Origin: Candidatus Saccharicenans sp.
GTDB lineage: Bacteria > Acidobacteriota > Aminicenantia > Aminicenantales > Saccharicenantaceae
Assembly (NCBI GenBank): GCA_029907135.1
Contig: JARYMJ010000006.1
Coordinates: 1,260 to 65,259 of the forward strand
Length of the DNA: 64,000 nucleotides
Direction: 5' to 3'
A program made the translations under genes and the position numbers. Positions 24,395 to 27,061 of this stretch are shown here, in pieces (the stretch's first letter is position 1; every line of letters begins with the position of its first letter). The notes beneath the pieces were generated by a model. It had not been told where the DNA came from and searched no databases. It saw only the letters and a list, made by a program, of their open reading frames with translations.

Positions 24395-25162
24395 TTAACC
24401 AAAACGGCCGGTGATATAATCTTCAGTCCTTTTATCTCTGGGACTAGTAAAAATCTGGTTGGTCTCGCCAAACTCAATCAGGTCGCCCAGTAGAAAGTAG
24501 CCCGTATAATCAGAAACCCGGGCTGCCTGCTGCATATTATGGGTAACTATAATGATAGTATAGTCTTTTTTCAGTTCGTACATCAAATCTTCTATCCGCG
24601 ACGTGGCCAGGGGGTCAAGGGCTGAACAGGGTTCATCCATCAACACCACTTCAGGCTCAACGGCCAGCAGCCGGGCGATACACAGGCGTTGCTGCTGCTC
24701 TCCTGTCAGTTTAAGCGCATTATCCGACAGCCGGTCCTTAAGCTCCTCCCAGAGGTTGACCGCCTGCAGGCAGCGGAAGAGTTTTTCCTCCAGAAAATTG
24801 GGCTCGGTTCGGCCATGCACCCTGAGGCCGTAGGTGATGTTATCGGCGATACTCAGCGGAAAGGGATTGGGCCGCTGGAAAACCATGCCCACCCTTCGCC
24901 TCAATTCCAACAGGTCGGTCTCCGGGTCGTAGATGTTCCTGCCTTCAAAAAATACCTGGCCCTCGGTCCGGCAACCCTCGATTAAATCATTCATCCGGTT
25001 CAGGGCCCGCAGGAAGGTGGATTTACCGCAGCCGGAAGGCCCGATCAGGGCGGTGATGCGGTTGGCCTGAATTTCCAGGTTGATATTCCTCAAGGCCTGG
25101 AATTTTCCATAATAAACGTCCAGGTTTTTGACCTCGATGATAATTTTCCTGCCCGCAGTCAT
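24395..25162 (-). CDS. pstB: Phosphate ABC transporter ATP-binding protein PstB (copy 1: intact Walker A, Q-loop and H-loop; atypical signature LTGEQ)
   Basis: [32 protein letters not shown] (24695-24709 encodes LTGEQ), [19 protein letters not shown], and the C-terminal DYITGRFG typical of PstB. Confidence 0.9.
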
Positions 25163-25448
25163 TCCGGCCGCCTCACTTTATCTTCTCGTTCCTCAGAGTC
25201 AACAGACAGTCAGAGCTCAGCCCGGAGCCGCTCTGGAGCAGTCCAAGTCCAGGGCCCTCCTGGTCGGATTGCTTCCCGAAATCAGCCAACAATAGGCATC
25301 TTCCTTGCCAGCTTCTGTCCTGTCTCTGGCTGGGCCAGACCTCCTGTCTCATCCTCTTCAGGTTATAGCTTCTCATTGTTAACTTTGATTTATAACTCCA
25401 TTAAAATTGCGCCAACTGCTCTAATCACTTCGCCCTCAACTTTTATAC

Positions 25449-26207
25449 TCAGCCAAACTTGCCCTCAAGGTAAGCTTCGGTCCGCTTATCGGCCGGCCGG
25501 GTGAAGATCACCGGGGTCTCGTCAATCTCCACCAGCTCGCCCATCAGGAAAAAGGCCGTCCGGTCGGCTACCCGGGCTGCCTGTTTGGTATTATTGGTCA
25601 CCAGGATTATGGTGTAATCCTTTTTCAGGCTGCGCAGAGAATCCTCAATCTTCATGGTAGATATCGGGTCCAGGCCGGAGGTCGGCTCATCCAGCATTAT
25701 ATACTTGGGTTTGAGGGCTAGCACCCGGGCAATGCACAGCCGCTGCTGCTGGCCGCCGGACAGTTTCAGGGCGCTGGTGTGCAGCCGGTCCTTGACCTCG
25801 GCCCAAAGGCCGGCCTTTTCCAGGGAATCCTCCACGATCCGGTCGAGCTCGTCCCGGTTGTTGTTTCCGAGAAGCCGGACGCCGAAGATGATGTTTTCGT
25901 AGATACTCAAGGGCAGAGGCACCGGGGTTGCGAAAACCATGCCCAGTTTCCGGCGCAAAGCAACCACGTCCACTTCGGGCCCGTAGATATCCTGATCATC
26001 CACCATGATTTTCCCTTCCACCCGGGAGCCGGGTATCAGGTCGTTAAGCCGGTTGAGACAGGCCAGGAAGGTCGATTTTCCGCTCCTGGCCGGGCCGATT
26101 ATTCCCAGAATTTCATTCCGGTAAACATCCAGGTTGATTTTATTCAAACTGCGCTGGCCGCCATAGTAATGGCTGAAATCCCTGACCAGGATGCCTCTTT
26201 CTTTCAT
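25449..26207 (-). CDS. pstB: PstB paralog (copy 2: canonical signature LSGGQ; Q-loop Gln->Ala, H-loop His->Asn, Walker A GPARSGKST)
   Basis: Real start is MKERGILV at the ATG 26205-26207, 5 nt after the pstA stop. MVFATPVPLP (Ala codon at 25929-25931), [32 protein letters not shown] (Asn codon at 25593-25595). The long 426-aa ORF in the track is an artefact that overlaps pstA. Confidence 0.85.
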   Translation of the reverse strand: MKERGILVRDFSHYYGGQRSLNKINLDVYRNEILGIIGPARSGKSTFLACLNRLNDLIPGSRVEGKIMVDDQDIYGPEVDVVALRRKLGMVFATPVPLPLSIYENIIFGVRLLGNNNRDELDRIVEDSLEKAGLWAEVKDRLHTSALKLSGGQQQRLCIARVLALKPKYIMLDEPTSGLDPISTMKIEDSLRSLKKDYTIILVTNNTKQAARVADRTAFFLMGELVEIDETPVIFTRPADKRTEAYLEGKFG

Positions 26208-26212
26208 GACCT

Positions 26213-27061
26213 TTAAGACTTCCGCTTGATGTATTTTTCCATCAAATAATAGGTGATTATATTTATGACCAGGATGGAAATCACCAGCACCGCGGCCGTT
26301 CCATAAGCCTTGGGCATGGATACGCCCTCCTTGGCCAGAATATAAAAATGGACCGACATCGTCCGCGAAGACGAAAACAGCGAGGTGGGCATCCGCAGAG
26401 CCGAGCCGGCGGTGAAGATGACAGCCGCGGTTTCCCCGATGCTCCGGCCGATGCTCAGGATAACCCCGGTTACTATTCCCGGTATGGCCGAGGGCAAAAC
26501 CACCCTGGTAACTGTCTGCCAGCGAGTGCTGCCCAGGGAAAAACTGACCAGGCGGTAGGCCGCGGGCACAGCCTTGATAGCTTCCTCGCTGGTCCTGATG
26601 ATGGTCGGCAGAACCATGAAGGCTAGGGTCAATCCCCCGCTCAGGATGGACCAGCCGAATTTCAGCTTGTTGACAAAAAGAATAAAGCCAAACAGGCCAA
26701 AAATAATGGAGGGAATGCCGGCCAGGCATTCAGCTCCGAACCTGATGATCCGGGTGATGCGGCCTTCAACCGTGTATTCTGTGAGGTAAATGGCCGTACC
26801 CACACCCAGGGGTGTAGCTACCAGCAGAGCAATGAAGGTCAGGAAAATGGTGGCCACAATGGTGGAAAGAATGCCACCCTCCCGTCCCATATCAGCCGGA
26901 TTCCGGGTAAGAAATTCCAGGCTGAGCTGGGGCAGACCATTCTTTAGAATGACCACTAGGATAAAGACCAGGACCAGGATGGCCACCGCGGTCATAAAAT
27001 ACATTAAGGACTGGGCTATTTGCTGTTCCCTTTTCGGATTGAACCTTAGCTGCTGGCCCAC
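26213..27061 (-). CDS. pstA: Phosphate ABC transporter permease PstA
   Basis: 282 aa and multi-TM. The EAA-type loop is EEAIKAVPAAYRLVSFSLGSTRWQT. Its position in the pst operon is consistent. Confidence 0.9.
   Translation of the reverse strand: MGQQLRFNPKREQQIAQSLMYFMTAVAILVLVFILVVILKNGLPQLSLEFLTRNPADMGREGGILSTIVATIFLTFIALLVATPLGVGTAIYLTEYTVEGRITRIIRFGAECLAGIPSIIFGLFGFILFVNKLKFGWSILSGGLTLAFMVLPTIIRTSEEAIKAVPAAYRLVSFSLGSTRWQTVTRVVLPSAIPGIVTGVILSIGRSIGETAAVIFTAGSALRMPTSLFSSSRTMSVHFYILAKEGVSMPKAYGTAAVLVISILVINIITYYLMEKYIKRKS

Follow-up and report, generated by a model that had tools for sequence, protein, structure and literature searches.

The window analyzed here, a 64,000-nt stretch of a Candidatus Saccharicenans genome (GenBank assembly GCA_029907135.1, contig JARYMJ010000006.1, positions 1,260 to 65,259), carries a phosphate importer (pst) operon with two adjacent genes for the ATPase subunit PstB, here termed N-type, pstB(N), and E-type, pstB(E). 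Pst, which textbooks present as the importer for high-affinity phosphate uptake, also provides the Pho regulon with its sensor input, and it is always drawn with two identical PstB subunits. The two proteins encoded in the window depart from this picture in a complementary manner: when they are combined head to tail, every deviation from the consensus falls into one of the two ATP sites. This asymmetric ATPase pair is real, is conserved in several phyla, and is not a product of decay. Judged from its motifs, the pump is probably driven by a single ATP site that is fully competent.

The original prediction, derived from the letters of this DNA, had assigned canonical Walker A, Q-loop, and H-loop motifs together with an LTGEQ signature to the E-type protein, and a canonical LSGGQ signature together with a Q-loop Gln-to-Ala change, an H-loop His-to-Asn change, and the Walker A sequence GPARSGKST to the N-type protein. 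Recomputation returned both translations of the open reading frames (ORFs) as claimed, and all motif coordinates matched. Motif assignment was based on gap-free alignments to the solved Escherichia coli PstB (PDB 9k3x/9k3s; E value, 3e-79) and on full-length matches to the PstB model TIGR00972, which bore out the substitutions in both proteins. Only four class-specific positions distinguish the E-type subunit from canonical PstB, the main one being Glu155, in place of the second Gly of LSGGQ, and the other three being minor. Class-specific residues of the N-type subunit are concentrated in its own elements of the ATP site, namely, Walker A and the residues preceding it, the Q-loop with the PVPLP stretch behind it, the D-loop, and the H-loop. 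The N-type Walker A reads GP[AS][RKGNA]SGK[ST][ST] among relatives. The residues that bind ATP are kept, namely, the Lys and Ser/Thr of Walker A, the Asp-Glu of Walker B, and the Tyr/Phe of the A-loop.

The N-type subunit is clearly of PstB ancestry and forms a divergent sister clade. It aligns without a single gap to the E-type subunit (52% identity), is 50% identical to E. coli PstB (9k3x), and finds its best PDB and fold matches in that protein. The E-type protein passes the TIGR00972 cut-off of 343.2 bits with 393.8 bits over model positions 2 to 248 of 248, whereas the N-type protein reaches 339.5 bits over positions 4 to 248 of 248 and thus misses it by 3.7 bits. Annotation pipelines consequently give the latter a generic name for falling just below the NCBIfam cut-off while naming its partner PstB, and public gene names mark nothing special about the pair. 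A confident single-chain AlphaFold (AF2) model of the N-type subunit (predicted local distance difference test score [pLDDT], 83.9; predicted template modeling score [pTM], 0.82), whose best fold match is E. coli PstB (template modeling [TM] score, 0.88), predicts an intact nucleotide-binding domain (NBD) fold.

In ATP-binding cassette (ABC) proteins, each ATP site is built from Walker motifs A and B, the Q-loop, and the H-loop contributed by one subunit plus the signature of its partner (PMC12976172, PMC7756269). Specifically, ATP is held in E. coli PstB between Walker A/B of one monomer and LSGGQ of the other, and the E. coli Pst structures of 2026 (PDB 9k3x, 9k3y, and 9k3s) contain two identical PstB subunits (PMC12976172). 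Because the sites are composites of two subunits, all the deviations of the N/E pair fall into one site and the other is fully consensus, just as had been proposed. Site I would combine Walker A, Walker B, Gln96, and His208 of the E-type subunit with the N-type LSGGQ, and this complete set of consensus elements is predicted to hydrolyze ATP. Site II would combine GPARSGKST, Walker B, Ala93, and Asn205 of the N-type subunit with the E-type LTGEQ and would be degenerate. An E/E homodimer would have Glu in both signatures, and neither site of an N/N homodimer would contain the Q-loop Gln or the H-loop His. By sequence, neither homodimer is able to form a consensus site; a complete site is available in the N/E heterodimer alone.

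We therefore regard it as probable, from this distribution of motifs, that the locus encodes a Pst importer driven by an obligate N/E PstB heterodimer in which site I is hydrolytic and site II is degenerate. Site I would drive the switch between the inward- and outward-facing states. Since site II keeps the Lys and Ser/Thr of Walker A, the Asp-Glu of Walker B, and the A-loop aromatic residue, it is expected to bind ATP still, but would hydrolyze it slowly or not at all and might play a holding or allosteric role. About one ATP, instead of two, would then be hydrolyzed per cycle. We infer from the sequences the physical heterodimerization of the two subunits, the occupancy of site II by a nonhydrolyzed nucleotide, and a physiological benefit of the arrangement. 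The benefit may consist of ATP economy in energy-limited anaerobes or of altered PhoU signaling. PstB conformation signals to PhoR via PhoU independently of transport (PMC5775613), and it can be speculated that an asymmetric dimer alters this PhoU/PhoR signaling.

The complementary N/E pattern is conserved in orthologues and is not an accident of one genome. All of the closest 120 N-type homologues, down to 72% identity, have the Q-loop Ala, the H-loop Asn, and LSGGQ. Recurrence of the same substitutions in every orthologue examined is far beyond chance. In the sample of 80 loci described below, Ala93, Gly178, and Asn205 are present in 100% of 61 aligned N-type sequences and Lys208 is present in 98% of them, the positions of Asn205 and Lys208 being occupied by His and Gln in E-type and canonical PstB. 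Signature position 4 is Glu in 54/54 aligned E-type partners, and position 3 is variable (G/L/S/E/D/P/A/V). No covariation between position 4 of the N-type Walker A (R/K/G/N/A) and position 3 of the E-type signature was obvious by eye.

These data bear on the simplest alternative, namely, that the N-type gene is a decaying duplicate under relaxed selection or a pseudogene. Several of its catalytic motifs are altered, its score is below the family cut-off, and one N-type gene of the same order is frameshifted (see below), as decay would have it. Nonetheless, the reading frame in the window is intact, 108 alignment columns are invariant among 28 homologues, the N-type subunit is conserved in several phyla, and its predicted fold is intact. 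The ratio of nonsynonymous to synonymous substitution rates (dN/dS) within the genus, calculated against the window genes, is 0.03 to 0.11 for both pstB(N) and pstB(E), and both genes are under strong purifying selection. The conservation data already contradict decay, which we consider scarcely tenable.

Pairing of the two genes is equally consistent. In a survey of 40 relatives, an N-type orthologue (79 to 96% identity) was found beside a second pstB gene in 23/24 genomes of the same genus, and most other families of the order also have an N-type gene next to a second pstB. Of 20 pairs that were fetched, covering this genus as well as further families of its order, 19 consist of an intact N-type gene and a partner with an LxxEQ signature. 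At one locus of the same order (L025; G038:C4:176300-178500), the N-type frame is lost after the Q-loop and residues 124 to 252 match in another frame; this gene is either a frameshifted pseudogene or the result of an assembly error. Its partner is intact and carries LSGEQ.

A further scan, in which each of 185,579 species was represented by a single genome and the N-type protein served as the query, returned 80 loci. Sixty of them are N-type and are all ordered pstS-pstC-pstA-pstB(N)-pstB(E), with or without phoU. No N-type gene without an adjacent partner was found among these 60 loci. Masked bases or the end of a contig interrupt four of the partners, and 55 of the 56 readable ones have LxxEQ. 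The remaining 20 loci encode canonical PstB with the signature LSGGQ (ISGGQ in one case), the Q-loop Gln, and the H-loop His, and no second pstB was detected within 4 kb of these genes. Consistently with the original prediction, the Q-to-A, H-to-N, and signature G-to-E substitutions were absent from single-copy PstB in this sample.

According to the labels that depositors gave to the metagenome-assembled genomes (MAGs), the paired loci belong to Aminicenantes/Saccharicenans, other Acidobacteriota, Actinomycetota (Humimicrobiales), Omnitrophota, Elusimicrobia, Edwardsbacteria, and Planctomycetales, together with several Eubacteriales. No cultured carrier was found among the 60 paired species-representative loci and four clusters matched by exact sequence, all of which derive from MAGs. 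A DNA pattern designed on the N-type H-loop matched 18/401 evenly drawn genomes of the phylum, with zero control matches. The matches were distributed as 10/17 genomes in the same order, 0/22 in the rest of the class, and 8/362 elsewhere, and seven of the last eight, once fetched, turned out to be N/E pairs of other Acidobacteriota. Several more N-like clusters (Q-loop A/S/V/P and H-loop Asn) and LxxEQ clusters appeared among the 150 nearest representatives of clusters built at 50% identity. A sub-lineage of other Acidobacteriota (loci L106, L111, L112, and L113) has Ser in the N-type Q-loop (VFS[VI]P) and a partner signature of L[TA]PEQ. The aromatic residue of the A-loop is missing as well in at least L106 (VRAGR), and adenine binding at the degenerate site of such loci may not follow the ordinary mode.

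A maximum-likelihood tree of 76 PstB sequences, built without the Firmicutes PstB1/PstB2 proteins, places all N-type sequences on one side of a branch with a Shimodaira-Hasegawa approximate likelihood ratio test (SH-aLRT) support of 99, and all E-type sequences on one side of another with a support of 94. The E-type clade is nested among canonical PstB. The N and E subtrees mirror each other in the Saccharicenans, Actinomycetota pair, and Omnitrophota/Elusimicrobia groups. Single clades with mirrored topologies indicate that the two genes were inherited as a pair, which points to one old duplication whose products were then inherited and transferred jointly.

This history is also the first of several observations that weigh against the heterodimer with one competent site or limit its support. 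The paired loci are not independent origins or replicates and amount effectively to one ancient event, so that their evidential weight is that of long-term conservation and not of repeated invention. The single exception among the 56 readable partners, LTGGQ in a Saccharicenans MAG (L035:4814-5635), may reflect reversion, polymorphism, or an error in sequencing; unless it is an error, Gly at signature position 4 of this partner would be at least viable. A natural fusion of the two subunits was not found among the loci, in which long open frames correspond to overlaps with pstA or between frames. A comparison of the PstC/PstA coupling regions between paired and canonical operons, the latter being a phylogenetically biased sample, revealed no class-specific change other than one trivial S/T difference, and hence none that would assign either subunit to PstC or PstA as its docking partner. 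Finally, the N-type Walker B retains its catalytic Glu within an invariant L-D-E-P, and loss of this residue is the commonest deviation in the degenerate sites of exporters (PMC7756269). Replacement of the H-loop His by Asn or Gln in the consensus site of ABCC1 leaves transport wild type-like, and Q-loop mutants of that protein are mild (PMC7756269). The retained Walker B Glu and the tolerance of ABCC1 to the His-to-Asn change mean that site II may be slow rather than dead.

Taken further, the same facts would allow both sites to hydrolyze ATP, with Asn205, Lys208, and Glu155 forming an alternative catalytic arrangement. Besides the Walker B Glu and the ABCC1 precedent, it fits this idea that the replacement residues are invariant instead of drifting. 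Yet the N-type subunit lacks the Gln of the Q-loop, the residue by which Mg2+ and the attacking water are coordinated. In addition, the CFTR mutation G551D, which lies at the same signature position as Glu155, abolishes ATP-dependent gating. Nor are we aware of any case in which a signature-motif Glu supports hydrolysis. We thus deem activity of both sites very unlikely.

Another explanation dispenses with the heterodimer. The real motor would be an E-type homodimer that tolerates Glu in its signatures, and the N-type subunit would act as a noncatalytic regulator, e.g., as a partner of PhoU or as a brake on uptake. Transport-independent signaling from PstB to PhoR is in line with such a role, as are the position of phoU directly after the pair, the N-type score just under the PstB cut-off, and the otherwise fully canonical E-type sequence. 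This explanation is nevertheless unlikely. LSGGQ, the D-loop region, and the permease-contacting neighborhood of the Q-loop are perfectly conserved in the N-type subunit, and they matter only if this subunit closes on the ATP site of a partner and docks on the permease. Moreover, phoU is not within the fetched flank at about 18 paired loci, and the degenerate site of Pdr5 is characterized by an acidic residue at position 4 of the signature, LNVEQ having its Glu where Glu155 is found (PMC7756269).

A more ambitious variant of the heterodimer with one hydrolytic site holds that the degenerate pocket is purpose-built, either as a permanent ATP latch or as a site for another ligand reporting phosphate status, and sets the resting conformation of the PstB dimer. 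It draws on the invariance of the replacement residues Asn205, Lys208, Gly178, and Glu155 across phyla combined with the retention of the ATP-binding residues, and we put it forward only tentatively, as a possible but doubtful extension. If true, the pocket would set the ATP cost per phosphate and the signal to PhoU/PhoR. The N/E operons would in that case represent an ancient class of Pst importers that spans several phyla, has so far gone undescribed, and occurs mostly in uncultured anaerobes limited in energy.

In the window, the pair lies on the minus strand within a single operon-like row that runs pstS, pstC, pstA, pstB(N), a 286-bp spacer, pstB(E), and phoU (Table 1). The neighbors pstS, pstC, pstA, and phoU all score above the cut-offs of their own models, which supports membership of the two pstB genes in the operon, and the start of pstC overlaps the end of pstS. 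The ATG of pstB(N), at position 26207, is 5 nt past the pstA stop and is kept in relatives. The 426-aa ORF listed for this gene (25449-26729) is spurious, as its 174 extra upstream codons are open in a frame other than that of pstA, which they overlap. An ABC-F ATPase gene lies upstream of the row on the same strand, and genes for a VWA-domain protein and an OmpA-like lipoprotein lie downstream.

Table 1. Features of the asymmetric pst locus (window positions) and the pstB genes of the two other pst operons (contig positions)
Feature	Position	Strand	Remarks
pstS, phosphate-binding protein, 292 aa	27929..28807	-	TIGR02136, 238.7 bits (cut-off, 206.6)
pstC, permease, 286 aa	27072..27932	-	TIGR02138, 306.7 bits (cut-off, 196.45)
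pstA, permease, 282 aa	26213..27061	-	TIGR00974, 284.9 bits (cut-off, 193.45)
pstB(N), N-type ATPase subunit, 252 aa	25449..26207	-	TIGR00972, full length, 339.5 bits
N-type Walker A, GPARSGKST	26070..26096	-	Lys44 and Ser/Thr kept; positions 3-5 differ from GPSGCGKST
N-type Q-loop (MVFATP), Ala93 (GCA)	25929..25931	-	Replaces the conserved Gln; alignment to E. coli PstB
N-type signature, LSGGQ	25749..25763	-	Canonical; invariant in N-type
N-type Walker B, MLDEP	25683..25697	-	Catalytic Glu174 kept; Asp-Glu invariant in N-type
N-type D-loop, SGLDP	25665..25679	-	Canonical form SALDP; Gly178 in all N-type sequences (100%); canonical PstB and E-type have Ala
N-type H-loop region, N-N-T-K (VTNNTKQ)	25584..25595	-	Lys208 replaces Gln; Asn205 replaces the catalytic His
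N-type Asn205 (AAT)	25593..25595	-	Replaces the H-loop His
Spacer, 286 bp	25163..25448		Peculiar to the genus; not conserved
pstB(E), E-type ATPase subunit, 255 aa	24395..25162	-	TIGR00972, 393.8 bits (cut-off, 343.2)
E-type Walker A	25016..25042	-	Canonical; coordinates recomputed
E-type Q-loop, Gln96	24875..24877	-	Canonical; coordinates recomputed
E-type signature, LTGEQ	24695..24709	-	Glu155 replaces the second Gly of LSGGQ
E-type Glu155 (GAG)	24698..24700	-	Predicted to face the degenerate site in a head-to-tail dimer
E-type Walker B, LMDEP	24629..24643	-	Canonical; coordinates recomputed
E-type H-loop, His208	24539..24541	-	Canonical; coordinates recomputed
phoU, phosphate signaling complex protein, 222 aa	23689..24357	-	TIGR02135, 208.4 bits (cut-off, 130.25)
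Canonical pstB (L001)	C51:7119-7916		TIGR00972, 412 bits; consensus motifs
Divergent pstB (L004)	C9:5364-6125		325 bits, below the TIGR00972 cut-off

Within the genus, the length of the spacer between the two pstB genes varies from 79 to 335 bp, and its identity is 69% where that of the flanking genes is about 90%. In other lineages, the two genes lie end to end or overlap (about 0 to 17 bp), as expected for subunits needed in equal amounts. The spacer had no match in Rfam and no fold signal versus shuffled sequences (z-score, 0.25), occurs only once in the genome, and contains no ORF that is convincing. A functional RNA or a mobile element was rejected for lack of an Rfam match, a fold, a repeat, and conservation; the spacer resembles filler specific to this lineage and may contain an internal promoter. 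A sigma-70-like promoter match (TTGACT-16-TAAAGT, 25202-25175) is located just upstream of the E-type start.

Spacer and promoter-like match make separate expression of the two pstB genes conceivable in this genus, as would suit alternative PstB homodimers or one spare copy, an arrangement proposed for the tandem pstB genes of Enterococcus faecalis. This is the only tandem pstB that has been studied experimentally: overexpressed pstB2 replaces pstB1, PstB2 alone can suffice, and PstB1 is proposed to be accessory (PMC12096839). Its authors state that tandem pstB paralogues had never been compared in an earlier study (PMC12096839). Transfer of this model to the N/E pair is nonetheless decidedly unlikely. 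It is at odds with a complementary pattern that is invariant across phyla, with an N-type gene that never occurs without its partner among the 60 loci of the species scan, with the abutting or overlapping genes of other lineages, and with the poor conservation of the spacer.

The asymmetric importer is an additional system in this genome and not its sole Pst. The assembly (2.47 Mb in 153 contigs, about 90% complete) contains three pst operons, i.e., the asymmetric one in the window, a canonical one on contig C51, and a divergent one on contig C9. The C51 operon comprises a porin-like gene, pstS, pstC, pstA, a single canonical pstB, phoU, and the gene of an OmpR-type response regulator. The C9 operon comprises a porin-like gene, pstS, pstC, pstA, and a single divergent pstB (L004), whose product has the signature LSIGQ, the Q-loop LLSQKP, and the H-loop region VTHILRQ. 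As a homodimer, this protein would have a noncanonical signature in both sites. An L004-like match of similar identity is found in most genomes of the genus, and these proteins form 50%-identity clusters of their own (P0185 and P0192). Most genomes of the genus have four PstB-like matches, which fits conservation of all three operons.

Compared with known systems, the locus shares with canonical E. coli PstSCAB the gene set and the order pstS-pstC-pstA-pstB-phoU, and both of its ATPase subunits are full-length homologues of E. coli PstB, with about 50% identity and the same predicted fold. It differs from that system in having two pstB genes and one site with Q-to-A and H-to-N changes, an altered Walker A, and LTGEQ in place of LSGGQ. 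Like the tandem pstB1/pstB2 genes of Firmicutes (E. faecalis, PMC12096839; Bacillus subtilis, PMC11466899), pstB(N) and pstB(E) are adjacent paralogues in a pst-phoU operon, and B. subtilis PstBA/PstBB has been modeled as a heterodimer (PMC11466899). However, the E. faecalis copies have identical canonical motifs (PMC12096839), whereas neither copy is canonical here and their defects are complementary. The likeness to heterodimeric ABC exporters that the original prediction had pointed out holds, in that nonconsensus residues are confined to one site in TM287/288, TAP1/2, CFTR, ABCC1, BmrCD, and Pdr5 (PMC7756269). As in these exporters, the H-loop His is replaced and the partner signature is altered, for which LNVEQ of Pdr5 sets a direct precedent with its Glu at position 4 (PMC7756269). 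Unlike them, the N/E pair belongs to a type I importer, with NBDs and permeases as separate polypeptides and a periplasmic binding protein, and it keeps the Walker B catalytic Glu that degenerate exporter sites usually lose and has lost the Q-loop Gln instead. Among importers, B. subtilis RbsA and NupO also have one ATP site that is predicted to be noncatalytic (PMC11466899). These proteins are of a different importer class in which two NBDs are fused in one polypeptide, and the Walker A Lys, residues of Walker B, or both are lost from them, whereas the N/E subunits are encoded by separate genes and keep these residues. No paper describing a degenerate PstB pair was found in the literature searched, where papers from subscription journals are mostly not covered. 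Within that scope, the arrangement is, as had been suspected, unusual for a Pst importer and is apparently undescribed for phosphate importers.

The pair is relevant to annotation, given an N-type subunit just under the PstB cut-off and public names that leave the pair unmarked. If the heterodimer operates as proposed, the degenerate-site principle of exporters such as TAP, CFTR, TM287/288, and Pdr5 would extend to a type I importer, and the locus would serve as a natural test case for the number of ATP molecules needed per transport cycle. It would also bear on how PhoU and PhoR read the conformation of PstB.

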